Below, in pieces: positions 25,984-64,000 of a DNA stretch of 64,000 nt (its first letter is position 1; every line of letters starts with the position of its first letter). The notes beneath the pieces were generated by a model, which did not search any database, had not been told where the DNA came from, and worked only from the letters and a program-made list of their open reading frames with translations. The position numbers and the translations under genes were made by a program. The stretch is taken from positions 256,001-320,000 of the forward strand of contig OY970192.1 in NCBI GenBank assembly GCA_963708135.1. Direction: 5' to 3'. The DNA is from an uncultured Gemmatimonadales bacterium (lineage in GTDB: Bacteria; Gemmatimonadota; Gemmatimonadetes; Longimicrobiales; RSA9).

Positions 25984-25991
25984 GAGGGTCC

Positions 25992-35985: not shown

Positions 35986-35989
35986 CGCG

Positions 35990-38419: not shown

Positions 38420-38617
38420 CAGCGCGGCTCGCCGGCGGTTGGTGGGGCGGGTCTCTCGTCGGGCGACATCGGGCCTCGTGGGGAGGAGGACGGGCCGGTT
38501 GGCTGGACCCCGTTAGCTACACTCCGGCCGCGGGCCGCGTCAAGAGGCCGTGCGTCCTCTTGCGCGGCCGCCGCGACGGCGGCATCTGAGGGAGTGCGCA
38601 TCGGCGGAGGGCGAGTG

Positions 38618-39322
38618 ATGAGCAGGATCGTGACGGTCGCGCTGGTCGGATGGGTGCTGCTCCCGGTGGCGACGGCGTGCGGCCGCGGCGGCTCGGGCCG
38701 CGCCGGCGGCGAGCGCACGGCGCCACCCGCCGGCGCCACCCCGGCCGCCACTCCGGGTCCGGACTCCGCCGCGGCCGCCACCACAGCCGCGGCTGGCCCG
38801 GGCATGGCCGCCGGGGCCGGCATTGCCTCGGGCATGCCGCCGGCTCCCACGCCCGCCGCCGCAGACACCGCCCCGTCCGCCATGGTGGGCCCGTCCGGGA
38901 CAATGGGCCGCGGCGGCATGATGGGCCGCGGCGGCATGCGGGGGATGATGGGTGGCGCCGCGGACACCGGCGCCGCGCCCCGCGCCCGGGTCGCCGCCCC
39001 GCCTCCCGGCGCCGCGGGCGCCGCCGGCTGCCCCGCCGTCACGCAGGCCCTCGCCGACGCGGGCCGGAAGCTCTTCACGGGTGCTGGGAACTGTCAGACC
39101 TGCCACGGCCCGACCGCCTCCGGGACGGCGCTGGCTCCGGACCTCACGGATCGGACGTGGGAGAACGTCGATGGCTCGTATGCCGGCATCGCACGCGTGA
39201 TCCGCGCCGGAGTCCCCCACCCAAAGAACCACCCCGCTCCCATGCCCCCCGCCGGCGGCGCCTCCCTCACCCCCACCCAGCTCTGCGCCCTCGCCGCCTA
39301 CGTCTTCTCCCTCTCCCACTAA
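38618..39322 (+). CDS. Cytochrome c lipoprotein with Ala/Pro- and Met/Gly-rich linker
   Basis: GGAGG RBS, lipobox VATAC, heme motif CQTCH, APDLTD..W, probable axial Met in PMPP. Confidence 0.88.
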   Translation: MSRIVTVALVGWVLLPVATACGRGGSGRAGGERTAPPAGATPAATPGPDSAAAATTAAAGPGMAAGAGIASGMPPAPTPAAADTAPSAMVGPSGTMGRGGMMGRGGMRGMMGGAADTGAAPRARVAAPPPGAAGAAGCPAVTQALADAGRKLFTGAGNCQTCHGPTASGTALAPDLTDRTWENVDGSYAGIARVIRAGVPHPKNHPAPMPPAGGASLTPTQLCALAAYVFSLSH

Positions 39323-39414
39323 CCTCACCCTCCCCCCCTCACCCTCACTCACCCATACCCGAATCCACACCCTCGAACTCTCCCTCACCCTCCCTCACCC
39401 CCACCCCCACCCTC
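39323..39414. repeat. C-rich degenerate (CCCTCA)-type tract between convergent genes
   Basis: Almost G-free 92-nt spacer with multiple CCCTCA and CCCCCA units. Confidence 0.8.
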
Positions 39415-41835: not shown

Positions 41836-42116
41836 CGGGACCTCGCGTGGAGGAGGCGTGGGACGGCGCTTCCTTCCAGAACGGGCGAACGGCGCCTGGG
41901 GTTTCAGGGGCCGCCGCGCGCCGGCCGCGGCTGCCGGCCGGGCGACGCGCGGTGCGCGATGCAGCCGCCCCGTCTCCCCACTCGCCCACTCTCCCACTCT
42001 CCCTCTTGCAACCGTCGCGGCGCCGGGTGCATCTATCGAAACGAGGGTGCTCTCCCGCGCGTAGGGGCTCCACCGACCGAGCCGGAGCCGACGCTCCCCG
42101 ACAAGGAGGCCGCACC

Positions 42117-47896: not shown

Positions 47897-47951
47897 TTGA
47901 CACGCCCCCTGGCACGAGTGTAGCATGGACCGCGTTGAGACTGATTCTCAA
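47897..47951 (+). promoter_or_regulatory. Sigma70 promoter with downstream Fur-box-like palindrome
   Basis: TTGACA(47897), 18 nt, TAGCAT(47921). TTGAGACTGATTCTCAA (47935-47951) resembles the 7-1-7 Fur box TGATAAT-N-ATTATCA. Confidence 0.75.
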
Positions 47952-47978
47952 GCTCACTCGGGCCACCACTCAGCCGCC

Positions 47979-49058
47979 ATGCCACACGTACAGCACGAGT
48001 CCGCCGCCACCGGGGCCGCCGTCGGGGCCTCCACCGCCGCCACGCGCGCGGGGACGCGCACCGGCCGGGCGGGCCGCGCGGCGCCGCGCCGGCCCACGCT
48101 GTGGAAGACCTTCTTCGCTCTCGCCGCGCTGGCGGTGGCGGGGGTTCTCCTGTGGGCGGGGCTGGTGGCGGGGGGGAGCCCGGATCCGCTGACGCGGAAC
48201 ACGGGCTCGCGGGCGGCGGTGGTGGACATCGGGGTGCTGGTGTTCCGTGAGGGGCTGGAGTGCATCCTGGTGCTGGCGGCGATCACGGCGAGCATGGTGG
48301 GCACGAGCCAGTCGTACCGGAAGCCGATCGCGGCGGGGGCGGCGCTGGGGTTCGTGGCGACGCTGCTGACGTGGGCGGGGGCAGTGCGGGTGGTGGACGC
48401 GCTGACGACGAGCATCTCGGCGCTTTACGTGCAGGCGATCACGGGGCTGCTGGCGATCGTGGTGCTGGTGATCGTGATGAACTGGTTCTTCCACAAGGTC
48501 TACTGGACGGGCTGGATCTCGATGCACAACCGGCGCAAGCGGGCGCTGCTGGACAGTGTGGAGCGCTCGGACCGGTCGCGGGCGAGGGTGCTTTGGGGCT
48601 TTGCTGCGCTGGGGTTCACGTCGCTGTACCGCGAGGGCTTCGAGGTCGTGCTGTTCCTGCAGAACTACCGGCTGAAGCTGGGGGGGCCGCCGGTGGGGTG
48701 GGGGGTGCTGGTGGGGCTGCTGCTGACGGGGGTGGTGGCGGTGCTGACGTTCGTCGCGCACCGTCGTCTGCCGTACCGCCGCATGCTGGTGCTGACGGGG
48801 ATCCTGCTCGGCGCGGTGCTGCTGGTGATGGTGGGCGAGCAGGCGCAGGAGATGCAGCTCGCGCACATGATTCCGACGACGGTGATCCCGTGGCTGGCGG
48901 CGCTCGTCCCGTCGTGGATGAGCCTGTGGTTCGCGGTGTTCCCGACGGTCGAGACGCTGACGGCGCAGCTGATCGCGGCGCTGCTGGTGCTCGGCTCCTA
49001 CCTCGTGGTCCGGCTGCAGCTCTCGCGGCTGGCCCGGGGCGCGACGGCGCGGGCCTGA
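47979..49058 (+). CDS. FTR1/EfeU family iron permease
   Basis: Two RExxE motifs (FREGLE, YREGFEVVLF) and multiple TM helices. Start placed downstream of the Fur-like box. Confidence 0.9.
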   Translation: MPHVQHESAATGAAVGASTAATRAGTRTGRAGRAAPRRPTLWKTFFALAALAVAGVLLWAGLVAGGSPDPLTRNTGSRAAVVDIGVLVFREGLECILVLAAITASMVGTSQSYRKPIAAGAALGFVATLLTWAGAVRVVDALTTSISALYVQAITGLLAIVVLVIVMNWFFHKVYWTGWISMHNRRKRALLDSVERSDRSRARVLWGFAALGFTSLYREGFEVVLFLQNYRLKLGGPPVGWGVLVGLLLTGVVAVLTFVAHRRLPYRRMLVLTGILLGAVLLVMVGEQAQEMQLAHMIPTTVIPWLAALVPSWMSLWFAVFPTVETLTAQLIAALLVLGSYLVVRLQLSRLARGATARA

Positions 49059-49372: not shown

Positions 49373-51318
49373 ATGCGACGCTCGATCGTCACGGGAATTC
49401 TCGCGGGCCTCGGGATCGTCGCCATGGCGCCGTCACTGGCGTGGGCGCAGGCTGGGGCGGATGCCGCGGCGCGGCCGGTGGCGAGTGCGGCGGCGCCGGC
49501 GGCGCGGCAGGGACCCACGGACGCGGTGGAGGTGGGGGCGTTCATGGACGGGATGATGGCGGCGCAGCTCAAGGACAAGAAGGTGGAGGGCGCGACGGTG
49601 GCGGTGGTGCGGGATGGCAAGCTGCTGTTTGCGAAGGGGTACGGCTGGGCGGACCTGGCGAAGCACGTTCCGGTGGACCCGGAGAAGACGCTGTTCCGGA
49701 TCGGCTCGGTGTCGAAGCTGTTCACGTGGACGGCGCTGATGCAGCTGGTGGACGAGGGGAAGGTGGATCTGCACGCGGACGTGAACAAGTATCTGGACTT
49801 CAAGATTCCGGACACGTATCCGGGCCACCCGATCACGGTGTGGAACCTGATGACGCACACGCCGGGGTTCGAGGACCGGGGCTTCTCGCTGTTCAGCGAG
49901 ACGAGCGAGCCGCGTGGGAGGTTCCTGGCGGAGCACATTCCGGCGCGGGTGCGGCTGCCGGGGACGTACTCGGCGTACTCGAACTACGGCGCGGCGCTGG
50001 CGGGCTACATCGTGGAGCGGGTGAGCGGTCAGTCGTGGGAGTCGTACGTGCGCCAGCACATCTTCGAGCCGCTCGGGATGCAGCACGCGGCGATGGAGCA
50101 GCCGCTGCCGAAGGACATTGCGGGGGACATGTCGGTGGGGTACGCGAAGGGCGGGGAGGAGCCGCAGCCGAAGGAGTTCGAGACACTGCTACCGATGGCG
50201 CCGGCGGGGAGCGGCAGCGTGAGCGCGGAGGACATGGGGCGCTTCATGATCGCGCAGCTGCAGAACGGGGAGTTCGAGGGCCGGCGGATCCTGTCGGACT
50301 CGATCGCGCGGCTCATGCACTCGCGGCAGTTCGCGCACGATCCGCGGCTGCCGGCCTTCGACCTGGGCTTCTACGAGCAGGATTCCCACGGCGTGCACAT
50401 CATCGGGCATGGCGGGGACACGCAGTGGTTCCACTCGGACCTGTCGCTCTTCCCGGATGAGAACCTGGGCGTGTTCGTGTCCTACAACACGGCGAGCGGG
50501 GGGAGGAGAGCTTCGGGCCGTTCCTGCAGCAGTTTCTCGACCACTACTACCCGCAGCCGCCGCGGCTATTGAAGGGCGCGCCCGCGCCGGACCTGGCGCC
50601 GTATCTCGGCAGCTACCGGCTCAACCGGATGTCGTACACGACGGCCGAGAAGGCGATGGGGCTGGCCTCGAAGATCACGGTGCAGGAGGACCCGAAGACG
50701 CCGGGCGGCCTCATCGTGGCGACGCCGCTCGGCCGCAAGCGCTACGTGGCCGCCGGCACCGACCTGTTCCAGGAGGTGGACGGCCCCGAGCAGGTGGCGT
50801 TCCAGGTGAAGGACGGGCAGGCGACGCACTTCTTCCTGAGCGACATGCCGATGATGGCGGCGGAGCGCGTCGCGTGGTACCAGGCGGCCACCTTCAGCCA
50901 GCTGGTCCTGGGCATCGCGCTGCTGCTCCTCCTCACCGTGCTGCTCGCGCTGCCCGGCCGCTGGCTCTTGCGCAAGCGCTTCCCGCAGATCCCGCCGATC
51001 GAGGGGCGGGCGCGCGTGGCCCGCTGGGTCGAATTCGCGGTCGCGGTGCTCGGCATCGGCTTCGTCATCGCCTTCGTGGTGGCGCTCAGCAACGCGGGCG
51101 GCCTCATGAAGGGGAACGGCGGGCCGATCTACTTCGCGCTCACGCTCTCGACGCTGGCGGCCGTGGGCACGCTCGCCCTGCTGTGGTACGCCATCCTCGC
51201 CTGGCGGCGAGGCCTCTTCGACATCTGGGGGCGCGTGCACTACACCCTCGTCACCGTCGGCGCCCTGGCCTTCGTCTGGGCGTTGGCGCAGTGGAACCTC
51301 CTCGGGTGGCGCCTCTGA
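49373..51318 (+). pseudogene. Beta-lactamase-family (S12) serine hydrolase with C-terminal TM helices; frameshifted at G6 run 50498-50503 (pseudogene or sequencing error)
   Basis: SVSK (SxxK), YSN and HGG motifs. Adding one G joins ..YNTASGG-EESFGPFLQQFLDHYYP.. to the 50569-51318 ORF. Confidence 0.85.
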
Positions 51319-51397
51319 CGCGTTAGCGGCGCGCACTCCTCCCGCCGCCGTCGGCGGCCCCGCTGTGTGAGGCGGGTCCGCCGGCGGCCGGCACCTC

Positions 51398-53173
51398 CTA
51401 CCACGCCAGCCCGTAGGCCTCGCGCCGCGGGTCCGCGCCCGTCTGCAGGACGCCGTCCGGCAGCAGACGGATCATCTGCGCGCCGCCGAAATCGTGGGAG
51501 CGCGCGTCGCGCACGATGACCCGGTTGCCCAATGAGCGCAGCCGATCCGCCGTGGCGCCGGGGAACCCGGGCTCGAGCTGGAGCGTGCCGTCGGCAAAAC
51601 TGCGCCAGCGCGGCGCCTCGACCGCCTGCTGCGGCGTCAGCCCCCACAGCGCAACGTCGTCGAAGACCTGCAGGATTGTCTGCGTCTGGCCATCGCCGCC
51701 GGGCGTCCCGATCACCATGGCCAGCGAGCCGTTCGGGTTGAGTACCATCGTCGGAGAGAGCGTATGGTAGGTGCGCTTCCCGGGCGCGATCACGTTGGCA
51801 GACGTCGGATCCAGCTTGAACAGCGCACCCCGGTCCTGCAGGATAAACCCGGTGCCCGGGACCATGCGGCCGCTGCCGAAGAGCGCGAAGTTGCTCTCGA
51901 TCAGGCTGACCGCGTTGCCGTGGCTGTCCACCACGCAGAGGTAGACCGTGTCACCGCCGCGCGGGTCGTTCTTGCCCGTTCCCTGCGCCTCGGGCGTCCG
52001 GCCGGATGTGCCGGCGCCACTCGCGCCCGCCGGGGGGGAGGCGTCGTCGGTCGCCTCCGCCGGGCGCAGTCCCTTCGCCCGCTCGCGGGCATATGCCTTC
52101 GAGATCAGCCTCTGTACCGGCACGTCCACGACTGCCGGGTCGCTCACGTAGCGGTCGCGGTCCGCGAACGCCAGCTTCTTGATGCGCGCCAGCAGGTCGA
52201 TGGCCGGCGCGCCCCTCCGGTCCATCCCCTTCAGGTCGAACAGCTCCGCCATGTTCATCTGTTCGAGGAGCGCCAGCCCCTGCGTGTTCGGAGGGAAGGC
52301 CAGCACCCGGTAGCCGGCGTACGTTGTGCTGATCGGCTCCGTCCATGTCGACGTATGCCGGGCGAGGTCCGCCGCGCTGATCAGTCCGCCCATCCGGTCC
52401 ATGTACGCCGCGACTTTCCGTGCGATCGGGCCCCGGTAGAAAACCGCCGGCCCGCCAGAGGCAATGGCCTCCATGGTGCGCGCCAGGTCCGGGTTGCGCA
52501 GCCGCGCGCCGACCGCCGGCACCTTGCCTCCCGCCAGGTAGATCGCCGCGATCGACGAATCGCGCTCGATCAGCGCCTTCTGGCTTCGTATATCCTCCGC
52601 CAGCGTGCTCGAGACCGGATACCCGTCCCGCGCGTAGTGGATCGCCGGCGCCAGCGCCTGTGCCAGCGTGATCGTGCCGTAGCGCGCCAGCGCGTCCGAC
52701 CACGCCATCAGCGTCCCCGGCACCGTCACGGAGAGAACCCCCGTGTCCGGCACCACCGTGAGGCCGCGCTCGCGGAAGAACGCGGGCGTCGCCCGGCTCC
52801 CCGCCCGTCCGCTGCCGTTCAGCGCCACCACCTTCCCCGTCTTCCCGTCACGGATCAACAGGAACGCGTCCCCCCCCAGCCCGTTCATGTGCGGCCGCAC
52901 CACGCTGAGTACCGCCGCCGCCGTGATTGCCGCGTCCACCGCGTTCCCGCCCCGCCGCAGCACCGCCGCCCCGGCTTCCGCCGCCAGTGGGTGCCCCGCC
53001 ACGATCGCCGCCGTCGTACCGCCCACCTCCGGCCGGCCCTTGTCGGCCGCCGCCGGTTCCTGCGCCTTGAGCTGCGCCGTGCTCACCAGCGAAAGCGATA
53101 CGGCGAGCACCGAGCGCGCGAGCGCGGTCAGGAGAGGCCCGCGCGGGGGTCGAAGGGTGGAAGCGTGGCGCAT
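51398..53173 (-). CDS. ggt: Gamma-glutamyltransferase (Ntn-hydrolase T3 family), secreted
   Basis: GGNAVDAA, GLGGDAF, VTVPG, PPNTQG, nucleophile Thr in GDTVYLCVVD, PGKRTYHTLSP, GTPGGDGQTQ, GADPRRE. Confidence 0.93.
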   Translation of the reverse strand: MRHASTLRPPRGPLLTALARSVLAVSLSLVSTAQLKAQEPAAADKGRPEVGGTTAAIVAGHPLAAEAGAAVLRRGGNAVDAAITAAAVLSVVRPHMNGLGGDAFLLIRDGKTGKVVALNGSGRAGSRATPAFFRERGLTVVPDTGVLSVTVPGTLMAWSDALARYGTITLAQALAPAIHYARDGYPVSSTLAEDIRSQKALIERDSSIAAIYLAGGKVPAVGARLRNPDLARTMEAIASGGPAVFYRGPIARKVAAYMDRMGGLISAADLARHTSTWTEPISTTYAGYRVLAFPPNTQGLALLEQMNMAELFDLKGMDRRGAPAIDLLARIKKLAFADRDRYVSDPAVVDVPVQRLISKAYARERAKGLRPAEATDDASPPAGASGAGTSGRTPEAQGTGKNDPRGGDTVYLCVVDSHGNAVSLIESNFALFGSGRMVPGTGFILQDRGALFKLDPTSANVIAPGKRTYHTLSPTMVLNPNGSLAMVIGTPGGDGQTQTILQVFDDVALWGLTPQQAVEAPRWRSFADGTLQLEPGFPGATADRLRSLGNRVIVRDARSHDFGGAQMIRLLPDGVLQTGADPRREAYGLAW

Positions 53174-53238
53174 GGGTCCGGCTCCGGCGTTGCGGGGGGA
53201 AGGCATGGCGGGCGCGTCCGGGACGCACGGCCAAGGGA

Positions 53239-53352
53239 TTGTATACAAAACATGGCGCGCTCCGCCGCGGCGAGGCAAGTGGCGTGCTGAAGGGCAGGTG
53301 CGCCGTCAACAATCTTGCTTGGGGCCACCCGTGTGCATAGCTTTGCATACAA
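53239..53352. promoter_or_regulatory. Two GntR/FadR-type operator-like palindromes in the ggt-susC divergent region
   Basis: TTGTATACAA (53239-53248, perfect) and TTGCATACAA (53343-53352, one mismatch). Confidence 0.65.
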
Positions 53353-53558
53353 ACCTGCCGACAATGTGAGGGTGCGAGCCGGAGAGCGACACGACGCGCT
53401 CCTCGCGGATTCGCGAAGCGGGTGCCCCGCCTCTGGGCGCCCCATAGCAGCCGCCGATTCAGATGTCGATTTGCGCGTTCCGCGTCGCCGCGGGGCGCGG
53501 GAACGCCCGTTGGTCATGGGCGGTCGGCGTACTCCTCCCCCTTGCCTGGAGGCGTGCC

Positions 53559-56555
53559 ATGGATCCAACCCCGAAGCGAATCACTCACTGCAGCGGGCCG
53601 ATGCGTCGTGCGGCGGCGCTCGCCGCCACACTGGCGTGTCTTGCGCTGGTCCTTGCCATGCCGCGCGCCCTGGTGGCGCAGGGGGGCGCGGTCGGGGGGA
53701 AGGTCGTGGATGCGCAGTCGCTTCAGCCGCTGACGGGCGCGCAGGTGGTGGTGGCGGGGACGAATCTCGGTGGGCTGACGGATGCGCGCGGCCGCTTCAG
53801 GATCACGGGGTTGACGGGCTCACAGGTCGAGCTGCGGGTGGTCATGATCGGCTACAAGACGGCGACGCAGGCGGTGACGGTGGGCACGGAGGACGTACGG
53901 ATCGCGGTGTCGCAGGCGGCAGTGGCGCTGGAGGAGCTGGTGGTGACGGGGACGCCGGGGCAGACGCAGATGCGGGCGGTCGGCAATTCTGTGACAAAGC
54001 TGAACACCGGCGCCGTACTGGAAGCGAAGCCGGTAGGATCGGTGGAGTCACTGCTGAAGGGAGAGGTCCCGGGTCTCACGGTACGGACGGGGCAGGGCAA
54101 CCTGGGGACTGGGGGCGTGATTCGGGTCCGAGGTGTGTCGAGCCTGTCGCTGAGCAATCAGCCGCTCATCTACGTGGACGGCGTACGGGTCAACAACGAC
54201 CCGCGTGCGGGTCCGTCGATTCGAGGGGGGTCGCAGAGCTCGCGGCTGGACGACATCGATCCCGAGGACATCGAGACCATCCAGGTGATCAAGGGGCCGG
54301 CGGCGGCCACGCTCTACGGGACCGAGGCGTCCAATGGGGTCATCCAGATCACGACGAAGCGCGGCGCGCAGGGGCGGCCGACGGTCTCGGCCACAGTGAA
54401 GGGCGGAGGGAACTACTTCCGCAATCCGGCGGGCCGCCTGCCCACGAACTACTGGAAGGACCCGTCAACCGGGCAGCTGGTCTCTGACAACCTGTACGCG
54501 GATGAGTTAGCGGCCGGCCGACATCCATTCACGAACGGTCCGATCCGCTCGGCCGACGTTCAGGTCCGGGGAGGCTCGGACAATGTTCACTACTTCACGG
54601 CGGTGGGGCTGGAGGACTCGCAGGGGATGGTCAACTACAACTGGCTCAAGAAGTACAACCTGCGCGGCAACGTGCAGTTGATCCCGAACGAGAAGTGGGA
54701 CATCAACTTCGATCTCGGCTACCTGAACAGCCAGACCCGGTACGGTCAGGCGGCGAACGGCTGGGATGTCATGGGCCAGTTCATCTGGGGGTCGCCGCGG
54801 ACCGTCGACACGAGGCTGCGGGGCTTCCTGCGGGCGCCGCCGGAGGTGGCGGCCACCATTGACTCCCGCTCGAAGGTGGACCATACCACGGTGAGCGTCC
54901 AGATCAACCACCATCCCACGCACTGGCTGACGAACCGGCTGACCATCGGCACGGACGTGACACAGGCCGCCAACTCGATCCTGTTCCCGCGCAGTCCGGA
55001 GGGTTCCGGGGGCTTCTTCGGCGCGGCCAGCCTCGGGGACAAAACGCTCGATGAGAACCGGGACCAGTTCACGACAGTGGACCTGGCCAGCACAGCGGTG
55101 CTCGATCTGGCGCCTGAAATCAACGCGTCGACCTCGGCGGGGGCGCAGTACTACGTGAAGCAGACGGAGCTCGTGGGGACCCGCGGCCTTCAGTTCCCGG
55201 CCCCGCCCATCACGACCATTGGCGGCGCGGCGCAGACCTTCGCGAACGAGACGTACCTCGAGAACAAGACGGCGGGTGGGTTCGTCCAGGAGCAGCTGTC
55301 CTGGAAGAACCGGCGGTTCCTGACGGGCGCGGTGCGCTTCGACGATAACAGCGCGTTCGGCGCCAACTTCAACTTCGTGACCTACCCCAAGGTGAGCGCC
55401 TCGTGGGTGCTGAACGAGGAACCGTTCTGGCACCTGGGCGTCGTGAATGCGCTGAAGCTTCGCGCCGCTTGGGGCGAGGCGGGCCAGCAGCCGGATGTGT
55501 TCGCGGCGGCGCAGCTTTACCAGCCCGAGACGGGTCCGGGCGACGCGTCGGTGCTCACGCCGCAGACCATCGGCAACCCTGATCTGCGCCCGGAGAAAGG
55601 TGAGGAGCTGGAGCTCGGCTTCGATGCCGGCGTGTTCTCCGATCGGATCGGGCTCCAGTTCACCTACTACAACCAGAACCGCAAGGACGCCATCCTGGCA
55701 GTGCCGATCGCGCCATCGAGTGGCTTCCCGGGGGTGAAGTTTGTCAACCTCGGGCTCGTACGCGATCGTGGCATCGAGATGGGCGCCAAGGCCCGGATTC
55801 TGGACGGTCCAAAGCTGGCCTGGGAGCTCGGCGTCAACTACTCGACCAACCACAGTCTGGTCATCGACCTGGGCGGCACCCCTCCGATCGCCACGGGAAC
55901 GCTGCAGCTGCAGAAGGAAGGCTACCCGGTGGCCGCCTTCTTCATGCGCCGCGTCGTGTCGGCGCAGGTGGACGCCAACGGCAAGGTTACGTCCGCGCTG
56001 TGCCAGTCGGAGAGTGGGCCGCCGGTGCCGTGCGACCAGGCGTCGGCCGTCTACGCCGGGCAGCCGAACCCGACCTGGTCCGGCAGCGTGGAGAACGCGC
56101 TGACCGTGCTGGGCAACGTGCGGCTCGAGGCCAGCGTCAACTTCCAGGGCGGCTTCCAGATGATCGACGGCGACATCGCGGCCTCCCACCTCGCGTTCCG
56201 GAATAGCAGGGCCATCAACACGGGGGAGTATCCGATCCTGCAGGCCTACGACCAGGTGGCCGGCTTCTCCTTCTACGAGTGCGGCCTCTACGACGCGGGC
56301 TGGGCCAAGCTGCGCAACCTCTCCGCGACCTACACCTTCCCCGAGCGGCTGGCCTCCCGCTTCGGCCTCTCCCGCGCCGCCTTCACCCTGGCGGCCCAGA
56401 ACGTGGCCGTCCTGTGGCAGGCGCAGAAGGACATCTTCGGCCGCCGGATCGTCGATCCCGAGGTCCGGCTGACCGCCAGCGAGCAGTCGGGCTACGTCCA
56501 GACCGTCATGCCCCAGATGTCGAGCATCGTGGCATCCCTGCGCGTGACCTTCTGA
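53559..56555 (+). CDS. SusC/RagA-like TonB-dependent transporter
   Basis: GGAGG RBS; LEELVVTG, PLIYVDGVRV, DIDPEDIETIQVIKGPAAATLYGTEASNGVIQITTK, NPDLRPEK, C-terminal Phe. Confidence 0.94.
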   Translation: MDPTPKRITHCSGPMRRAAALAATLACLALVLAMPRALVAQGGAVGGKVVDAQSLQPLTGAQVVVAGTNLGGLTDARGRFRITGLTGSQVELRVVMIGYKTATQAVTVGTEDVRIAVSQAAVALEELVVTGTPGQTQMRAVGNSVTKLNTGAVLEAKPVGSVESLLKGEVPGLTVRTGQGNLGTGGVIRVRGVSSLSLSNQPLIYVDGVRVNNDPRAGPSIRGGSQSSRLDDIDPEDIETIQVIKGPAAATLYGTEASNGVIQITTKRGAQGRPTVSATVKGGGNYFRNPAGRLPTNYWKDPSTGQLVSDNLYADELAAGRHPFTNGPIRSADVQVRGGSDNVHYFTAVGLEDSQGMVNYNWLKKYNLRGNVQLIPNEKWDINFDLGYLNSQTRYGQAANGWDVMGQFIWGSPRTVDTRLRGFLRAPPEVAATIDSRSKVDHTTVSVQINHHPTHWLTNRLTIGTDVTQAANSILFPRSPEGSGGFFGAASLGDKTLDENRDQFTTVDLASTAVLDLAPEINASTSAGAQYYVKQTELVGTRGLQFPAPPITTIGGAAQTFANETYLENKTAGGFVQEQLSWKNRRFLTGAVRFDDNSAFGANFNFVTYPKVSASWVLNEEPFWHLGVVNALKLRAAWGEAGQQPDVFAAAQLYQPETGPGDASVLTPQTIGNPDLRPEKGEELELGFDAGVFSDRIGLQFTYYNQNRKDAILAVPIAPSSGFPGVKFVNLGLVRDRGIEMGAKARILDGPKLAWELGVNYSTNHSLVIDLGGTPPIATGTLQLQKEGYPVAAFFMRRVVSAQVDANGKVTSALCQSESGPPVPCDQASAVYAGQPNPTWSGSVENALTVLGNVRLEASVNFQGGFQMIDGDIAASHLAFRNSRAINTGEYPILQAYDQVAGFSFYECGLYDAGWAKLRNLSATYTFPERLASRFGLSRAAFTLAAQNVAVLWQAQKDIFGRRIVDPEVRLTASEQSGYVQTVMPQMSSIVASLRVTF

Positions 56556-56585
56556 CCGCAACTCCGACGACAAGGAGAATCAATC

Positions 56586-57869
56586 ATGTTCGGTCATCTC
56601 CAACAGAAGCCGCCCCGCGGCCGGGCCGGATGGCACCGGTGGCCGCTGATGGCGCTGCTTCTGGGGCTGGCCCTGCCAGGGGCCGGCTGCAATCGGTTGC
56701 TGTCCGTGGATCTGCCCGGCGTGGTCAGCTCCACGGCGCTCGACAACCCCCAGCTCGCCCAGACGCTCGTCCTCGGCGCAGAAGCCGACTTCGACTGCGC
56801 GCTCACCAACTACGCCGGCGCCACGGCGGCGCTGACCGATGAGCTGGACGGCGCCACCGGTTGGGCCGCCTACACTGCGTGGGACACACGCAAGATCACC
56901 CCGGACAACGGGAACCTGGCCACGGCCGGCTGCACGGGGTTCGGCTTCGGGGTTTACACGCCGATCCAGACCGCGCGCTACCAGGCGGAGCACAACGCCG
57001 AAATCATCTCGGGCTTCAGCGACGCGGACGTGCCCAACAAGACCGACGCCCTCGCCACGCTCGCGGCGTACGAGGGCTACAGCTACATCCTGTTGGGCGA
57101 GGGGTTCTGCGCGGCGGCTGTGGACCTCGGGCCGAAGATGACACCCGCGGAGCTGCTCCAGGCCGCTGTCGACCGCTTCACAAAGGCCGTGGATCTGGCC
57201 GGGCAGGCAGGGGACGACGACATAGCCATCCTGGCCCACGTCGGCCGCGCCCGCGCGCTGCTCGACCTCGGCCGCGCAACCGATGCGGTGGCCGACGCGC
57301 AGGCGGTTCCGGAAGGCTACGTCCACCTCGTGACACGGTCCTCCGTCACGCAGTCCCGCTGGAACGTGGTCGCGGATGTCACACACAGACAGTACTTCTA
57401 TTCGGTCTCTCCCAGCTACCGCGACCTGACCTTCGATGGGGTGCCCGACTCGCGGGTCAGTGTCCACGACGCCGACAGGCTCGGTCACGATGGCGTGACC
57501 GAGGTCTTCCTGGTCAACAAGTTCAGCGACGTCAGCGACCCGATCGTGATGGCCAGCTGGGAGGAAGCGCAGCTGATCCTGGCCGAGGCCGAGGGTGGAA
57601 CCGACGCGGTGGCGGCCATAAACCGGCTGCATGCCGAGTACGGGCTGCCGGACTACCAGGGCGGCACCGAGGAGCAGATCAAGCAGCAGATCATCGAGGA
57701 GCGGCGCAGGCAATTCTTCCTGGATGGGCACCGGCTGGGCGACCTTCTGCGCTACGGGCTGCCGTTCCCGTCGGGCGTAAACGCCAAGGGCCAGCCCTAC
57801 GGCGAGACGACCTGCCTGCCGCTTCCGCAGGTGGAAGCGCAGAACAATCCCTCGATCGGCGGAAGCTGA
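56586..57869 (+). CDS. RagB/SusD-like lipoprotein
   Basis: AAGGAG RBS, lipobox PGAGC, EAQLILAEA, ERRRQFFLDGHRLGDLLR, CLPLP. Confidence 0.9.
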   Translation: MFGHLQQKPPRGRAGWHRWPLMALLLGLALPGAGCNRLLSVDLPGVVSSTALDNPQLAQTLVLGAEADFDCALTNYAGATAALTDELDGATGWAAYTAWDTRKITPDNGNLATAGCTGFGFGVYTPIQTARYQAEHNAEIISGFSDADVPNKTDALATLAAYEGYSYILLGEGFCAAAVDLGPKMTPAELLQAAVDRFTKAVDLAGQAGDDDIAILAHVGRARALLDLGRATDAVADAQAVPEGYVHLVTRSSVTQSRWNVVADVTHRQYFYSVSPSYRDLTFDGVPDSRVSVHDADRLGHDGVTEVFLVNKFSDVSDPIVMASWEEAQLILAEAEGGTDAVAAINRLHAEYGLPDYQGGTEEQIKQQIIEERRRQFFLDGHRLGDLLRYGLPFPSGVNAKGQPYGETTCLPLPQVEAQNNPSIGGS

Positions 57870-57886
57870 ACGGAAAGGACCGGATC

Positions 57887-59740
57887 ATGACCACACGCCA
57901 AATGCAGCGGCCGCGCCCGCGAGCGGCGAGCCGCACGCGCGGCTGGCTGCGAGGCGCCGTAGTGCCGACCGGGCTGGCCTGCGCACTCCTGCTCCTGCTC
58001 GCCTCGCCTCCCGCGGCCGCACAACAGCCGGAGCCCGCGCTGCTCGCGCACCCGATGAGCGTCCAGTACGACGTGCAGGTCCCCACGCGGGACGGCGTGC
58101 ACCTGTCCGCCGATGTCTACCGGCCGGCGGATGCCGCCCGCCACCCGGCGATCTTCGAGCTCACGCCGTACAACAACAATGCCGGCGATGTCATGGAGCG
58201 GGCGTGGCACTACGTGCGACAGGGCTACGCGTTCGTCCCCGTGGACGTGCGGGGCCGCTACGACTCCGAGGGGAAGTTCGATCCCTGGCGGACGGACGGG
58301 CCGGACGGCTCCGACGTGATCGACTGGATCGCGCGCCAGGGGTGGTCGGACGGGCACGTGGCCACGATGGGCGCGTCCTACCTCGGCATGGACCAGTGGC
58401 TTGTGGCGCGCGAGAACAACCCGCACCACACGGCACTGGTCTCGTACGTGGCGCCCGAGAACGGGTTCCGGGACGTCATGCGCTTCGACGGGGTGCCCAA
58501 GCTGGATCTCATCTTCACGTGGGCGGCAGGCATGTACGGCCACGTCAACCAGTCGGAGGCGGGCTGGAACTGGCACGCGGTCATGCTGGGCCTGCCGCTC
58601 ACCCAGCTCGGCGAGCGCGCGGGGCGGCCGATCCCGTTCTGGGTGGACTGGATGCGGCACGACCGGGAGGACGCCTACTGGGAGCCGGTCAGCATGAGCG
58701 GGCACTACGGCGGCTTCGACAAGCCTTCCTTCAACGTGACCGGCTGGTGGGACGGACAGATCATCGGGACGACATCGCACTTCGTTAACGCAGAGCGCGC
58801 TTCCGGCCACCCGGAGCGCAGCATGCTCGTGATCGGCCCCTGGTTGCACGGGGTCAACCGGACGCGCAAGCTGGGCGAGCGGGACTACGGTCCGCATGCC
58901 ATCATCGACCTGCAAGGGCTCCAGGACCGCTGGCTAGGTCACGTCATGCTCGGTGCGCCGGATCCGGGGCTGGCGCGAGTGATGTACTTTCTGCCGGTGA
59001 AGAACGTCTGGAAGACCGCGGCCGGCTGGCCGGTTCCGGAGACCCGCTTCACCGCCTACTACCTGGCCGGAGGCGGCCACGCCAACACGCTGCTCGGCGA
59101 TGGTGCGCTCTCCACCCGCGAGGGAGCCGGCCGGCCGGACCACTTCACCTACGACCCTGCCAGGCCCGTGCCCACGGTGAGCAGCCGAACCGCCGGCGCC
59201 CGCGGCGGGATCGCGCAAGGCAGCGTCGACAACCGCGCCGTGGAGACGCGGCAGGACGTGCTCGTCTACACCAGCCCGGCGCTCGAGGAGGGGATGGAGG
59301 CGACCGGTCCCGTCGAGGCCACCATCTACTTCACCACGGATGTGCCGGACACCGACATCACCGTGAAGCTGCTCGACGTCTACGCCGACGGCCGGGCGCT
59401 CAATCTGAGCCATGGGATCGCCCGGGCGCGGTACCGGACCTCGTTCGCGCAGCCACGGCTGGTCACGCCCGGAGCGAGGGATTCCGTGCGCGTGCGCATG
59501 TTCCCCTCGAGCAACTACTTCGAGGCGGGCCACCGGATCCGCATCGAGGTTTCGAGCAGCAACTTCCCGCTCTTCGGCCGCAACCTGAACACGGCCGACA
59601 GCCCCGATACCACATCGGCCATGCGCGTCGCCCACACCACGATCCTTCACGACGCCCGCTCCCCCTCCCGCATCGTGCTGCCCGTGATTCCGGCTGGCGC
59701 CACCGCCACGACGGACGTCACGGATGGAGGGCGCCGCTAG
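57887..59740 (+). CDS. CocE/NonD family (S15) serine hydrolase, secreted
   Basis: PTRDGVHLSADVYRP, TPY, DVRGRYDSEG, GASYLG nucleophile, GWWD, IGPWLH, GHRIRIEVSSSNFP. Confidence 0.93.
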   Translation: MTTRQMQRPRPRAASRTRGWLRGAVVPTGLACALLLLLASPPAAAQQPEPALLAHPMSVQYDVQVPTRDGVHLSADVYRPADAARHPAIFELTPYNNNAGDVMERAWHYVRQGYAFVPVDVRGRYDSEGKFDPWRTDGPDGSDVIDWIARQGWSDGHVATMGASYLGMDQWLVARENNPHHTALVSYVAPENGFRDVMRFDGVPKLDLIFTWAAGMYGHVNQSEAGWNWHAVMLGLPLTQLGERAGRPIPFWVDWMRHDREDAYWEPVSMSGHYGGFDKPSFNVTGWWDGQIIGTTSHFVNAERASGHPERSMLVIGPWLHGVNRTRKLGERDYGPHAIIDLQGLQDRWLGHVMLGAPDPGLARVMYFLPVKNVWKTAAGWPVPETRFTAYYLAGGGHANTLLGDGALSTREGAGRPDHFTYDPARPVPTVSSRTAGARGGIAQGSVDNRAVETRQDVLVYTSPALEEGMEATGPVEATIYFTTDVPDTDITVKLLDVYADGRALNLSHGIARARYRTSFAQPRLVTPGARDSVRVRMFPSSNYFEAGHRIRIEVSSSNFPLFGRNLNTADSPDTTSAMRVAHTTILHDARSPSRIVLPVIPAGATATTDVTDGGRR

Positions 59741-60604
59741 ATGGCCACGCCGAGGCCCCGACCGGAAGCGGTGGATCCCGCGCGCGGCCCGGTTCCGCTC
59801 GAGATCCGGCCCCTGGCCGGTTCGGCGGAGCTGCAGGCGTGCGTGGAGCTCCAGCACCTGACCTGGGGCGCTTCGTTCGACGGCTGCGTGCCGGCCAGCC
59901 TGCTCCAGGTGCTGGTCAAGGTCGGTGCCCTCGTGGCCGGCGCCTTCACGCCCGAGGGCATGCTCGCCGGCTTCGTCTTCGGCGTCACCGGCCCGCGCGC
60001 CGGCGCGCTGGTGCACTGGTCGCACATGCTGGCCGTGCGGCCGGAGCTGCGCAACCACGGCATCGGCCAGCGCCTGAAGCATTTCCAGCAGAGGTTCGTG
60101 CGCGAGCTCGGCGTGCGCGAGATGCTCTGGACCTACGACCCTCTCGTCGCCCGCAACGCCCACTTCAACCTCGACCGGCTCGGCGCGCGCGTCATCGACT
60201 TCGTCCCCGACATGTACGGCGACACCGGCAGCGCTCTGCACCGCTCCGGCACGGACCGCTTCATCGTGAGCTGGCTGACCAATGGCCACGCCACCGCCGC
60301 GCCGCCTTCTCCCGCGCCGCCTTCTCCCGCGCCGCTGCCTCCGGAGGCGCTCCGCGCGCCCCTCGTGGAGGACGGCGTGGGCGCGCTTCCGGTCGCACAC
60401 GGTGGGCCCCGGTGGTGCCGCATCGAGATCCCGCCCGACATGGAGCGGCTGCAGAACGCCGAGCCGGCCGCCGCGCGCGCCTGGCGCCTCTCCACCCGCG
60501 CGGCGTTCGAGCGCTGCCTCGCCGCCGGCGTCCTGCCCGTCGGCTTCCACCGCGACGGCGAAGGCCGCTGTTTCTACGTGCTCGCCGGCGGGGGGGTGGG
60601 GTGA
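59741..60604 (+). CDS. COG3375-type GNAT acyltransferase (D-amino-acid N-succinyltransferase-like)
   Basis: SHMLAVRPELRNHGIG..LK..Q, WTYDPL..RNAHFNL.RLGA, DMYG, TDRF. Confidence 0.85.
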   Translation: MATPRPRPEAVDPARGPVPLEIRPLAGSAELQACVELQHLTWGASFDGCVPASLLQVLVKVGALVAGAFTPEGMLAGFVFGVTGPRAGALVHWSHMLAVRPELRNHGIGQRLKHFQQRFVRELGVREMLWTYDPLVARNAHFNLDRLGARVIDFVPDMYGDTGSALHRSGTDRFIVSWLTNGHATAAPPSPAPPSPAPLPPEALRAPLVEDGVGALPVAHGGPRWCRIEIPPDMERLQNAEPAAARAWRLSTRAAFERCLAAGVLPVGFHRDGEGRCFYVLAGGGVG

Positions 60605-60623
60605 AGGGGAGGTGTCGACGGCG

Positions 60624-60710
60624 AGAGTGGGGGAGTGGGGGAGTGGGCGACCCCGGGCCTGCTTCGCGGCGCGATCGGGGGGCCGGGCCTCGCGACCGTC
60701 CCGGCGCCTG
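60624..60710. repeat. G-rich octamer cap followed by an inverted copy of the 47.4 kb unit
   Basis: AGAGTGGGGGAGTGGGGGAGTGGG, then CCGGGCCTCGCGACC (reverse complement GGTCGCGAGGCCCGG). Confidence 0.8.
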
Positions 60711-60955
60711 TCGCGTCACGTGGTTCCGCGGGCTCGATTGCCCGCCCCGCCCGAGGTCGCCGCAGGGCCGGCGGTACGCCCGTGGGCTGCGGCGACCCTC
60801 GACGCGGCGGCCGGATTGTGCGGGTGCGGTGCCCGCGAACATGGCGAGGCCCGCGCACGCGCGGCGCCCCCGATCGGCGCCCGGGTCCGGCCGTTTCAGC
60901 CGCGCGTTCCGCGACGTAAGTTGCTCCCGAAAGGGCCTACCGAAGGAGCGCTTCC

Positions 60956-61735
60956 ATGCTGGTCATAATCAAGCGTGACTACGAGGAGGCGAGCCGGGAG
61001 GCGGGGCGGCTCGTGGCGAACCGGCTGCGCAAGAAGCCGAACCTGGTCCTGGGGCTGGCCACGGGGGGGACGCCGCTCGGGCTCTACCGCGAGCTGATCC
61101 GGCTGCACCGGGAGGAGGGGATCGACCTCTCGAAGGCGACGACCTTCAACCTGGACGAGTACCTCGGCCTGCCGCCCGACCACCCGCAGAGCTACAGCCG
61201 CTTCATGCGGGAGAACCTGTTCGACCACGTGAACATCCCCGAGCGCTTCATCCACGTGCCGGACGGCATGGCGCTCGACGTGGAGGAGCACTGCCAGTGG
61301 TACGAGGACGAGATCCGCCGCGCCGGCGGCCTCGACCTGCAGGTCCTCGGCATCGGCGCCAACGGCCACCTGGCCTTCAACGAGCCGGGCTCCTCCCTCG
61401 GCTCGCGCACGCGGGTCAAGACGCTGACGAAGAAGACGCGCGAGGACAACGCCCGCTTCTTCGGCAGCCTGGCCGATGTCCCCCGCCACGCCATCACCAT
61501 GGGGATCGGCACCATTATGGAGGCGCACGAGCTGCTGCTGCTCGCCAGCGGCGAGCGCAAGGCCGACGCCATCCGCGCCGCCGTTGAGGGCCCGATCACC
61601 GCCATGGTCCCCGCCTCCATCGTGCAGATGCACCCGCGCGCCTTCCTCGTCGTGGACGAGCCCGCCGCCGCCGGGCTGCAGGGCGAGTATGCCGCGTCGT
61701 TCGAGGAGGCTGTGATCGTGAGGCGGAGCTTGTAG
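60956..61735 (+). CDS. nagB: Glucosamine-6-phosphate deaminase
   Basis: VLGLATGGTP, TFNLDEY, DLQVLGIGANGHLAFNEPG, AITMGIGTI. Confidence 0.96.
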   Translation: MLVIIKRDYEEASREAGRLVANRLRKKPNLVLGLATGGTPLGLYRELIRLHREEGIDLSKATTFNLDEYLGLPPDHPQSYSRFMRENLFDHVNIPERFIHVPDGMALDVEEHCQWYEDEIRRAGGLDLQVLGIGANGHLAFNEPGSSLGSRTRVKTLTKKTREDNARFFGSLADVPRHAITMGIGTIMEAHELLLLASGERKADAIRAAVEGPITAMVPASIVQMHPRAFLVVDEPAAAGLQGEYAASFEEAVIVRRSL

Positions 61736-61774: not shown

Positions 61775-64000
61775 CTAGAACGCGAGCCGGTGCACCACCT
61801 TCGCCACCAGCGCCCCGTTCAGCGGGCGCTCGAGCGAGCGGAGCTCCGGGAAGCGGTAGCGCGCGGAGGGGTCGGTGGTGAAGCCGGAGTTCCAGACCAC
61901 GTAGACGTCGTCGCCGATGACCGGGATCCAGTGGAAGCGCAGGTTGAAGTCGGCGCGCTGGTCCTCGTTGTTGTACTGGACGAAGGCGAGGAAGCTCGTG
62001 CGGGTGGTGAAGGCGTACTCGATGTTGCTGCCGAGGTCCACGGCCGTGAAGTGGCCGTCCGGCAGGCTGGCGGTGGTGCGGTTCAGCCGCACGCCCAGGA
62101 TCAGGTGGCCGCCGCCGCGCCAGTCGCCGGAGAGCTCGAGGTCGGTCGAGTGGCCGCCGTAGAAGCCGCCCCAGCCGAGCTGTGCCTGGCCGCTCAGCGC
62201 GCCGGCGGACGAGCTCTCCAGCTGCACCTCGCCCCGCGTCCACCAGTAGCGGCCGGCCGGGACACTGATGTCGTTGAAGATGTCGAAGGAGTCCGTGGGC
62301 GCGTCCATCTCGCGCTGGACGTTGGCCTCGAAGCGCGCGCCCGACTGGAAGTCCGCGCCGAGCACGCGCCACTCGAAGCGCGCGTACTGCCAGTCGGCGG
62401 GTTTCGTGAGGCTGCCGGTCTCGTCGGCGATGATGTCCCAGCTGGGGATCGGCTTGAGGTCGAGCTGCCGGATCCCGAGCACGCCCGGCCGCGGCTGCAG
62501 GTCGATGTGCCCGGAGGTCTCGCGGATACCCGTGCGGCGCACGAAGCCGAGGGTGGGGTTGAAGCCGGCGTCGATGCCGTAGAAGGAGACGAAGCCGTCC
62601 ACCAGGTCGTTGGGGTAGTCGAGCCCCAGTCGCCACGCGGCCGCCCGGCCGGTCGAGTCGGGCACGTCCGTGCCCGCCACCCAGAAGGAGGGCTGGAGGT
62701 TCCGTCCGCCCACGACGAGCGGGAAATCCCCGTCGATCCCCAGGGCCCGCTGGCCATGCGGGACGCCGGGCCCGGAGCGGTTCACGGCCATGAGCCCGAC
62801 CGAGGCACGGGCCAGGAGGTCGTGCTTCACCCGGACGACGACGTCGTTCGCCGCGTCGTCGCCGCCCGTGCGGGCGTCCATGAAGCCGAGCGTCCACGGG
62901 CCCACGCGGCCGTAGACGCGCGCGCCGCCCAGGATCGGCACCGGGTCGCCCGTCTCCTCGTTCAGCCCGACGCGCCGCGAGTAGAAGAGCGTCGTCCGCT
63001 CGCGTGAGCCGAAGTCGAAGAGCGCGCTCGACTCCAGGAAGAACTCACGCTTCTCCGGGAAGAAGAGCGGGAAGCGCGTCAGGTTGATCACCTGCCGGTC
63101 CGCCTCGACCTGCGCGAAGTCCGGGTTGACGGTCAGGTCGGCGGTCATCGTCGCCGTGAGGGAGAGCTTGGCGTCGAGGCCGACCTGGCCGTCCAGCGTC
63201 GAGCCGCCGAGGGCCTCGCCGGAGGGGTCGTGCTCGGGCGCGATCGCCCGGCCGAGCAGGTACGGTCGCAGCGCCCACGGGTGGCCACCCCCCAGCCGGC
63301 CCAGCCCGGCGAGCGAGCCCTCGTAGAGCTGCTCGTACAGCCCCTGCGACCGTCCCCACGAGCGCCACAGGTCCTCCTCGTTCCTGCGCCGGATGAAGCG
63401 TCGCACATTGAAGCCGAACACCGGCGCGGCGCCCGCCGGGTAGCGCAGGGTGCGGAACGGGATGCGCAGCTCCGCCGTCCAGCCGCCTTCGTCCCGGGTC
63501 ACCGCGACGTCCCAGATCCCGTTCCAGTTGTCGTTCGGATGATCGCCGCCGGAAAGCTGCGCGTCCCAGCGCGCGCCGTTCGGGTTTGTCCGGAACAGGA
63601 AGGCCGTGCGCCGGTCGTGGAAGCCGTCGATCAGCACCGTGAGGTTGTCGTCCGCCCGGAAGTCGCCGTCGCGCCGCAGCGTCGCGGCCCGGATCCCCGC
63701 CGGGTCATCATCGTACGCCCGGATGGCGACGTAGAGTGCCTCGTGGTCCCGTGCCACCCGCACCACCGTCCGCTCCGACGCCGGCGCGCCCTCGTCCGGC
63801 TCCCGCTGCCGGAAGTCGTCGATCGAGTCCGCCGCGGCCCAGACCGGCTCGAGCAGCCGCCCGTCCAGCTTCACCGACGTCTGCACGGCCGCCGCCGTCA
63901 GCGTGGCCGCCGCCGTGGCGGACGGCGGCAGGTGCTCCGAGGCCGTCTCCTGCGCGCGCCCCGGTAGCGCCGGAACGAGCACGCACAGGCAGGCGAGCGC
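61775..64000 (-). CDS. DUF5916 / CBM9-like domain outer membrane protein (5' end outside window)
   Basis: LDGRLLEPVW, FRQREP.EG, GWTAELRIPF, DLTVNPDFAQVEAD..VINLTRFPLFFPEKREFFLE, FYSRRVG, C-terminal Phe. Confidence 0.88.
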   Translation of the reverse strand, partial: ALACLCVLVPALPGRAQETASEHLPPSATAAATLTAAAVQTSVKLDGRLLEPVWAAADSIDDFRQREPDEGAPASERTVVRVARDHEALYVAIRAYDDDPAGIRAATLRRDGDFRADDNLTVLIDGFHDRRTAFLFRTNPNGARWDAQLSGGDHPNDNWNGIWDVAVTRDEGGWTAELRIPFRTLRYPAGAAPVFGFNVRRFIRRRNEEDLWRSWGRSQGLYEQLYEGSLAGLGRLGGGHPWALRPYLLGRAIAPEHDPSGEALGGSTLDGQVGLDAKLSLTATMTADLTVNPDFAQVEADRQVINLTRFPLFFPEKREFFLESSALFDFGSRERTTLFYSRRVGLNEETGDPVPILGGARVYGRVGPWTLGFMDARTGGDDAANDVVVRVKHDLLARASVGLMAVNRSGPGVPHGQRALGIDGDFPLVVGGRNLQPSFWVAGTDVPDSTGRAAAWRLGLDYPNDLVDGFVSFYGIDAGFNPTLGFVRRTGIRETSGHIDLQPRPGVLGIRQLDLKPIPSWDIIADETGSLTKPADWQYARFEWRVLGADFQSGARFEANVQREMDAPTDSFDIFNDISVPAGRYWWTRGEVQLESSSAGALSGQAQLGWGGFYGGHSTDLELSGDWRGGGHLILGVRLNRTTASLPDGHFTAVDLGSNIEYAFTTRTSFLAFVQYNNEDQRADFNLRFHWIPVIGDDVYVVWNSGFTTDPSARYRFPELRSLERPLNGALVAKVVHRLAF

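Follow-up and report, generated by a model that had tools for sequence, protein, structure and literature searches.

We analysed a stretch of 64,000 nucleotides (the window) from an uncultured Gemmatimonadales bacterium whose genome is one contig (C1) of 5.45 Mb and ~70% G+C; the window corresponds to C1:256001-320000 and is present in one public sequencing run (X1), labelled as a soil metagenome; the names on homologues and related loci assign this DNA to Gemmatimonadota. Genes for a SusC/RagA-family TonB-dependent transporter (susC), a SusD/RagB-like lipoprotein (susD), a CocE/NonD (S15) serine hydrolase (cocE) and a GNAT acyltransferase follow one another here on one strand, and we read them as an operon-like unit for the uptake and use of peptides or related amides, not glycans, with a probability of about 0.5. 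Taken by itself, a peptide or amide substrate, as opposed to a glycan, is probable. The locus leans towards D-amino-acid peptides, and that these are its main substrate is a tentative proposal to which we give somewhat less than even odds.

Genes were inventoried from the listed open reading frames (ORFs) with Pfam, NCBIfam and a screen for G+C at third positions, while signal peptides and lipoprotein N-termini were judged by eye from the translations (Table 1). The gap between susC and susD is 30-93 nt and that between susD and cocE 17 nt, and the cocE stop and GNAT ATG abut at 59740/59741 (gap of 0 nt), which suggests co-expression. A gap of 351 nt separates GNAT from nagB, which is probably a separate unit from the susC-to-GNAT run. 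SusC, CocE, the neighbouring S12 hydrolase, the gamma-glutamyltransferase-family protein (GGT) and a DPP4-type peptidase have signal-peptide-like N-termini, the SusD-like protein has a lipoprotein-type N-terminus (...LPGAGC), and neither is seen on GNAT or NagB. An earlier note on this DNA had described the run with its abutting genes, a GGT divergent from susC, an adjoining S12 hydrolase and nagB downstream; coordinates and family models bear out this arrangement, with every named gene at or near the place given. The note had also stated that the locus holds no glycoside hydrolase (GH). This is true of the 12 ORFs scanned at 44-64 kb, among which we found no GH, polysaccharide lyase or carbohydrate esterase family, but a CBM9-like/DUF5916 protein at 61775-63982 carries the sole carbohydrate-type domain. 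Two glycan-type SusCD loci stand elsewhere in the window (within 3-2140 and 21350-33138), one with SusD and GH18 and one of starch type (ROK regulator, SusC, GH13, GH97, GH13, then an MFS transporter on the opposite strand); the method therefore does find carbohydrate-active enzymes (CAZymes) where they are present.

Both transporter components fall within their families. SusC carries PF13715 (CarboxypepD_reg), PF07715 (Plug) and PF00593 (barrel) domains and matches TIGR04056 over its full length and above the curated cut-off; the model of the SusC/RagA signature motif, TIGR04057, scores 45.6 bits, just short of its cut-off of 46.2. Among SusC homologues it scores 157 bits to 8aa4, 143 to BT2264, 128 to BT1763 and 117 to RagA. 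The SusD-like protein combines a SusD_RagB Pfam match, a lipoprotein signal, a position right behind susC and the SusD fold, its AlphaFold model (pLDDT 86.3) matching many SusD-like structures with a Foldseek probability of 1.0 at TM 0.57-0.67 (BT1762 0.66, RagB 0.57-0.61, glycan SusDs up to 0.67). RagAB of Porphyromonas gingivalis is, in the portion of the source available, described as a SusCD-type oligopeptide importer (bioRxiv 10.1101/755678), and gene context suggests oligopeptide binding and import of this type for the pair in the window.

That context is visible in the relatives of the SusCD pair. SusD homologues occur at E<=1e-10 in 177 of the 301 phylum genomes (a tally that includes the unpublished G097 and G157), with identities of 58% in G211, 57% in G130, 56% in G208, 53% in G190 and 52% in G274, the others reaching at most 49%, which is the level of paralogues in the own genome. 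Twelve related SusCD loci were read in other genomes, and peptidase or amidohydrolase Pfam families stand beside SusCD in 11 of them. G211 and G208 have asnB, SusC and SusD, then a convergent M20 gene (plus MBL and DLH), and G130 has an additional TonB receptor and a PD40-amidohydrolase. G274 carries a CocE paralogue, SusC, SusD, the CocE orthologue and two M19 genes in this order, while G190 carries on one strand S9, GntR, an amidohydrolase, MR/MLE, an M55 D-aminopeptidase, a GGT (30%), SusC, SusD and S12. More distant related loci hold amidohydrolase, M28, CocE or several S12 genes, and the twelfth locus (L041) has just a DPP4-like tblastn match at 24% identity.

A census was then made of 40 further SusD-homologue loci, next in rank order of the match table (ranks 10-58), leaving out loci already read, own-genome rows and two rows of G097. 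A peptidase or amide-hydrolase family lies among the nearest genes (at most three per side) in 36 of the 40 loci, or in 34 without the creatininase family, and a GH in one (GH13, in L203). The families found were S9/DPP4, Amidohydro_1/3, S12, M28, M15, M1, trypsin, amidase signature and class-A-like beta-lactamase; L194, L198, L203 and L204 have no peptidase or amide hydrolase. The own genome holds 17 SusC genes over the cut-off, of which three have GH neighbours (GH13/GH97, GH18, GH27), seven, including that of the window, have peptidase or amidase neighbours, and the others have neither or are ambiguous. In a quick maximum-likelihood tree of the own-genome SusC genes (IQ-TREE), a 12-member clade (SH-aLRT 99) contains all seven peptidase-linked SusC and none of the three GH-linked ones. 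The functional theme, peptidases and amide hydrolases beside SusCD, is thus conserved, unlike the exact gene set, in keeping with the earlier suggestion of a non-glycan SusCD locus.

A D-stereospecific enzyme context, likewise suggested earlier, is also found, as the D-specific families M15, M55, S12 and M19 recur around SusCD paralogues and orthologues. In the census, Peptidase_M15 (D-Ala-D-Ala dipeptidase) occurs in four loci, PF00144 in seven and alanine racemase in one. A much fuller D-amino-acid-peptide gene set than that of the window locus is found in a paralogous island of ~32 kb at C1:4,211,800-4,244,000 (L043, L044). The island starts with a small GNAT gene, an amino-acid permease, S12, GntR and two back-to-back SusCD pairs; S12+DUF3471, M19, S12+DUF3471, a D-aminoacylase-like Amidohydro_3, CocE, S12+DUF3471 and an S12-M15 fusion follow; and two class-A-like beta-lactamase-family genes precede, at its end, a GNAT paralogue 50% identical to that of the window and an MR/MLE (NSAR) gene. 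Its S12 genes number five, one being the fusion with an M15 D-Ala-D-Ala dipeptidase.

Two further observations concern these loci. Fusions of ~800-850 aa joining an S12 domain to a VanX-type M15 domain are recurrent and often stand directly after SusD (L044:7571-10111, also L184, L193 and L200, with tblastn matches in L051, L081, L087, L100 and L127). At L048:11550-12938, a PGA_cap-family protein lies directly upstream of a SusC-SusD-S12-GntR run and scores 242.8 bits, against a cut-off of 700, to the model of the lasso-peptide C-terminal Trp epimerase MslH.

The last gene of the run connects it to D-amino-acid metabolism. The AlphaFold model of the window GNAT (pLDDT 86.1) has the GNAT fold, and its top Foldseek matches are the amino-acid N-acyltransferases PA4866, PAT and YncA over the first ~170 residues; no structure match was listed for the C-terminal ~90 residues, and a comparison with PDB sequences gave nothing significant (best E 0.015). 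Among 8000 candidates scored, 2458 relatives were found at E<=1e-3, the closest 73% identical and the others at most 55%, and a homologue in the Atlas led only to generic GNAT clusters with look-alikes in Bacillota and Chloroflexota and serves as a lead only. We read the gene surroundings of the best 80 of at least 601 matched stretches in representative genomes (L051-L130), which come mostly from Gemmatimonadota and in part from Acidobacteriota, KSB1, Caldithrix, Ignavibacteriaceae, Hydrogenedentes and Deferribacteres. An MR/MLE gene of the NSAR/OSBS subfamily lies less than 400 nt from GNAT in 60 of these 80 loci and anywhere in the locus in 63. The further neighbours, with the number of loci, are S12 (20), a D-aminoacylase-like amidohydrolase (14), an amino-acid permease (12), SusC (10), M19 (8), the S12-M15 fusion (5), M55 (5), S13 (4) and CocE (4). 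Based on this context of its homologues, the window GNAT is placed in the NSAR-partner GNAT family, which fits the tie to the NSAR pathway that had been claimed for this GNAT type. In the own genome, the 50%-identical paralogue stands directly upstream of the MR/MLE gene, whose product scores 328 bits to the Deinococcus (D. radiodurans) N-acylamino acid racemase, 310 to the Amycolatopsis NSAR and 329 to TIGR01928, and a third copy stands behind an M20 gene. The succession of a GNAT of ~280 aa and an NSAR/OSBS-type MR/MLE protein is a conserved pair across several phyla. A pathway from D- to L-amino acids made of a GNAT succinyltransferase, NSAR/OSBS and an M20 desuccinylase is described in the available part of its source (bioRxiv 10.1101/2022.03.03.481873).

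Taken together, these genes suggest the following route. The SusD-like lipoprotein and the SusC barrel would pick up oligopeptides from the cell surface, with TonB energy driving the import, and the secreted CocE/S15-family hydrolase would trim them in the periplasm, where S12, DPP4 and perhaps GGT may assist. Passage through the inner membrane, for which the locus encodes no transporter, would come next. In the cytoplasm, the GNAT would N-acylate, probably N-succinylate, the D-amino acids set free, and an NSAR racemase encoded elsewhere (C1:4,241,937-4,243,163) together with an M20 deacylase could yield L-amino acids. Favoured substrates may be peptides containing D-amino acids, for example peptidoglycan stem peptides of soil necromass.

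Several results weigh against this reading. SusC scores and SusD fold matches do not discriminate peptide from glycan transporters and bring the pair no closer to RagA and RagB. Conserved ggt/susCD/cocE/GNAT synteny, by which the earlier note wished its proposal to be judged, did not hold up. The 12 related SusCD loci gave no match to GNAT or NagB, the GGT orthologue is missing from the SusCD-orthologue loci examined, none of the 29 GGT-orthologue loci read has a SusC within 1.5 kb, and the CocE orthologue adjoins the SusCD orthologue in one of four genomes (G274). No inner-membrane transporter or regulator is encoded in the susC-susD-cocE-GNAT run. The window GNAT copy has no MR/MLE or M20 gene adjacent to it, nor any among the 36 window ORFs scanned. 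CocE/S15, DPP4 and S9 enzymes are equally usual in ordinary L-peptide degradation. As to the census, its genes come from a crude third-position G+C caller, with 233 of the 235 nearest ORFs submitted to Pfam, and 36 of 40 overstates the independent support because orthologous groups are included: eight loci from a single genus are laid out alike, four from another genus have a second common arrangement, and each of two triplets has its own. No other genome searched has the exact gene arrangement, and GGT, S12, DPP4 and nagB are neighbours without conserved linkage to SusCD. As the evidence stands, we leave GGT and nagB out of the system. The proposal of a polysaccharide-utilisation-locus (PUL)-like system for import and catabolism of non-standard peptides is supported as regards a non-glycan, peptide or amide substrate and not supported as regards a conserved gene set, and nothing here tells muropeptides, poly-gamma-glutamate and natural products apart.

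The main rival explanation is generic scavenging of L-oligopeptides, in which a RagAB-like pair would work with periplasmic dipeptidyl peptidases, the S15 enzyme and DPP4 freeing Xaa-Pro-type dipeptides from ordinary protein fragments; GNAT would be a passenger or unrelated, and D-amino acids would not be the point. We consider it unlikely, if the strongest of the competitors. In many related loci the S15 and S9/DPP4 families predominate, M19 dipeptidases stand behind the CocE orthologues, no racemase or epimerase was found among the ORFs scanned at this locus, and RagAB is a SusCD pair able to import ordinary oligopeptides, as far as the accessible part of its description goes (bioRxiv 10.1101/755678). 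Set against this are the GNAT start that abuts the cocE stop, the tie of the GNAT family to NSAR in three quarters of the loci read, and the recurrence of M15, M55, S12 and NSAR by paralogous SusCD pairs. It is improbable that no functional unit exists past susC-susD and that the enzymes are there by chance, although tblastn finds 24 S12, 7 GGT, 6 CocE and 3 GNAT hits in this paralogue-rich genome and the exact arrangement is confined to it: the short gaps on one strand speak for a unit, the same families turn up again next to independent SusCD paralogues as well as in other genera, and the GH-linked SusCD loci of the own genome are without them.

Uptake with hydrolysis or detoxification of ester or amide natural products (amino-acid esters, beta-lactams, alkaloid-like esters) would assign hydrolysis to the CocE-type esterase, S12 and the GGT-like acylase and acylation of the freed amine to GNAT. 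The closest solved relative of the CocE-like protein is the Rhodococcus cocaine esterase CocE (283 bits), with alpha-amino-acid ester hydrolases next at ~100 bits, that of GGT is labelled a cephalosporin acylase, and the S12 family includes beta-lactamases. We find this explanation quite improbable nonetheless, as no S12 subfamily model scores over its cut-off (AmpH 78.4 vs 266, D-aminopeptidase 77.7 vs 443, class C 88.7 vs 415), the linkage of GGT and S12 to SusCD is unconserved, and the neighbours in related loci are mainstream peptidases (M19, M20, M28, S9), not tailoring or efflux genes. A glycan or amino-sugar locus, for example for peptidoglycan glycan or chitin-derived material, with CAZymes elsewhere and nagB and the CBM9-like protein as partners, is highly improbable. 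Those two genes do lie directly downstream, and the same window has a GH18 SusCD locus, but the gap ahead of nagB is wide, NagB is unmatched in the related loci, GH is nearly absent from the census and the three GH-linked SusC of the own genome lie outside the clade of the window SusC.

The individual enzymes were also compared with solved relatives. The CocE-like protein has its Ser, Asp and His (in GASYLG, GWWDG and GPWLH) at positions that align with the catalytic triad of CocE (S117, D259 and H287). CocE orthologues (60-62%) occur among the 301 genomes in G274, G130, G208 and G211 only, and in all four two M19 dipeptidase genes stand behind them, making CocE orthologue-M19-M19 a conserved block in one genus (L171, L172, L173, L035). 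The SusCD pair lies between two CocE genes in G274, whereas these adjoin each other in G130, which suggests that the pair moved into or out of this site. GGT has orthologues (46-58% identity) in many genomes, with an amino-acid permease in 8 of the 29 loci read, and was rejected as a conserved SusCD partner on the absence of SusC from these loci. Its closest solved relative is 2nlz, a Bacillus halodurans GGT homologue, at 331.7 bits, followed by GGTs including those of E. coli and Bacillus at ~243 to 257 bits; its nucleophile Thr (of 'TVYL') aligned with 2nlz, and it belongs to T03. CapD reaches just 112.7 bits, and GGT is thus not closest to the CapD-type poly-gamma-glutamate depolymerases raised earlier.

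The S12 hydrolase shows its SVSK, YSN and HGG motifs in translation and changes frame in a G-run near 50497-50518, its four-helix membrane part continuing in the other frame to 51318. A membrane-anchored S12 protein had been noted before, and the anchor is there; the gene does not end at 50572, since the membrane part runs on. Orthologues are contiguous, 646-684 aa long (the 646-aa one in L063) and have the same membrane tail, and in one contig of run X1 (depth 5.98 of 5.98) an additional G follows 50497 and joins both parts in a single frame. We hence take the break to be, most probably, an assembly error in the record, and a true pseudogene was set aside; X1 is perhaps the source sample, and the extra G is thus no independent biological replication. 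Membrane-anchored S12 orthologues stand near GNAT-NSAR pairs in L063, L096 and L127, and L109 has, near GNAT, a 50% match to the N-terminal part only.

Downstream, nagB and the CBM9-like protein have their own parallels. L218:933-2930 (C1:583,933-585,930) encodes a fusion of a NagB-like domain with a PIG-L-type deacetylase; a sodium:solute symporter comes next, and the fusion lies ~4.4 kb upstream of another SusCD pair. DUF5916/CBM9-like proteins are convergent to the ends of three clade SusCD loci (window 61775-63982, L193:12986-15295 and L200:13079-15451), L193 and L200 being SusCD plus S12-M15 loci flanked by DUF5916 proteins; the own genome gives six tblastn hits for this protein.

Table 1. 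Features at and around the susC-susD-cocE-GNAT run, in window positions (where two values are given, the score precedes the cut-off).
Feature	Position	Strand	Support and remarks
DPP4-type dipeptidyl peptidase (S9B), secreted	45013-47301	+	DPPIV_N 301.7 bits, Peptidase_S9 175.8 bits; signal-peptide-like N-terminus
FTR1 permease	47925-49058	+	
S12/Beta-lactamase-family serine hydrolase, signal peptide, C-terminal four-helix membrane domain	49373-51318	+	PF00144, 215 bits
Gamma-glutamyltransferase-family (T03) protein, secreted	51398-53173	-	TIGR00066 419.8 vs 357.85
ggt/susC divergent intergenic region, ~427 nt, presumed promoter region	53174-53600	none	
SusC/RagA-family TonB-dependent transporter	53601-56555	+	TIGR04056 419.7 vs 368.25; alternative starts 53463, 53559
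SusD/RagB-like surface lipoprotein, short (406 aa)	56649-57869	+	PF07980 28.9 vs 23.1; alternative start 56586
CocE/NonD (S15) serine hydrolase, secreted	57887-59740	+	TIGR00976 365 vs 66.3
Two-part GNAT acyltransferase, cytoplasmic	59741-60604	+	PF00583 20.8 vs 20.7 (weak); no NCBIfam match
NagB glucosamine-6-phosphate deaminase	60956-61735	+	TIGR00502 (equivalog) 313.8 vs 236.9
CBM9-like/DUF5916 exported protein, convergent	61775-63982	-	PF19313 63.7 bits, PF06452 38.4 bits

The DPP4-type S9 peptidase just upstream was absent from the earlier gene list and may belong to one peptide-scavenging neighbourhood with the locus. In the ggt/susC intergenic region neither a sigma-70-like site nor an Rfam family nor an inverted repeat was found; a promoter/terminator scan gave no promoter-like sites and six terminator-like sites against 4.6 expected, and Rfam had no match across 44-64 kb. 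An imperfect 24-nt inverted repeat between GNAT and nagB (60742-60810) is no more stable than shuffled sequence (z -1.43). The record differs from the X1 contigs by four A-to-G differences (54467, 56139, 57516 and 57901), which are either strain variation or assembly errors. Elsewhere, the window encodes a further D-amino-acid enzyme, an alanine-racemase-fold protein with a D-serine-dehydratase-like C-terminal domain (4194-5327, minus strand), along with three large MacB/FtsX-type permease genes in tandem (35990-44585), a fragment carrying TonB-receptor plug domains (35179-36117) and a DDE_3/HTH transposase gene of an insertion sequence (7413-8537).

The locus shares features with several known systems. 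Murein-peptide recycling in E. coli and Bacillus uses an L-Ala-D/L-Glu epimerase, LD-carboxypeptidases and dipeptidases on material of the cell's own wall, taken up through inner-membrane permeases. The use of D-residue cell-wall peptides via stereospecific peptidases and an enolase-superfamily racemase or epimerase is a feature of that process and is proposed here; an outer-membrane SusCD importer, in contrast, implies scavenging of external material. Like RagAB, the window pair consists of a SusC-family TonB-dependent barrel and a SusD-family lipoprotein lid in a locus without CAZymes, peptide use being here a reading from the genes, but it has no specific kinship to RagAB by the scores given above, belongs to another phylum and sits with hydrolases and a D-amino-acid-pathway GNAT. 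With Bacteroidota PULs (the Sus paradigm) it shares tandem susC-susD genes followed by same-strand secreted hydrolases. These hydrolases belong to peptidase and amidase families and not to CAZymes, so the locus does not qualify as a PUL, and it further differs in its short SusD, its Gemmatimonadota host and the lack of a hybrid two-component or SusR-type regulator. The pairing with NSAR/OSBS genes in the family of the window GNAT and the M20-linked third paralogue fit the GNAT-NSAR/OSBS-M20 pathway, while the window copy stands apart from NSAR and instead joins a SusCD-CocE run.

As far as the accessible parts of their sources go, SusCD-type peptide import (RagAB) and the GNAT-NSAR-M20 pathway are already known. 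In the literature within our scope, outside which lay subscription journals and supplements, we met with no account of SusCD loci linked to peptidases in Gemmatimonadota or of a SusCD-NSAR link, and neither 'peptide utilization locus/loci' nor 'protein utilization locus' occurs in the papers retrieved on the topic. SusC/SusD pairs outside Bacteroidota are routinely taken for glycan importers, and KEGG, in the part consulted, labels SusD/RagB 'starch-binding'. A broader proposal, which we put forward as speculative and think rather unlikely, is that Gemmatimonadota, and perhaps neighbouring soil phyla, have a large and diverse SusCD clade for D-amino-acid peptides of cell-wall necromass that would mix and match with S12, S12-M15, M55, M19, S15 and the succinyl-dependent GNAT-NSAR-M20 pathway, a 'peptidoglycan-peptide utilisation locus' parallel to glycan PULs of which the window operon would be one member. 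Should a whole clade in this abundant soil phylum indeed import peptides, above all D-residue ones, what is inferred from genomes on carbon and nitrogen cycling by Gemmatimonadota would be altered; there would be a concrete genetic handle on what becomes of peptidoglycan-derived D-amino acids in soil necromass, and an ecological role for the little-studied GNAT-NSAR pathway.

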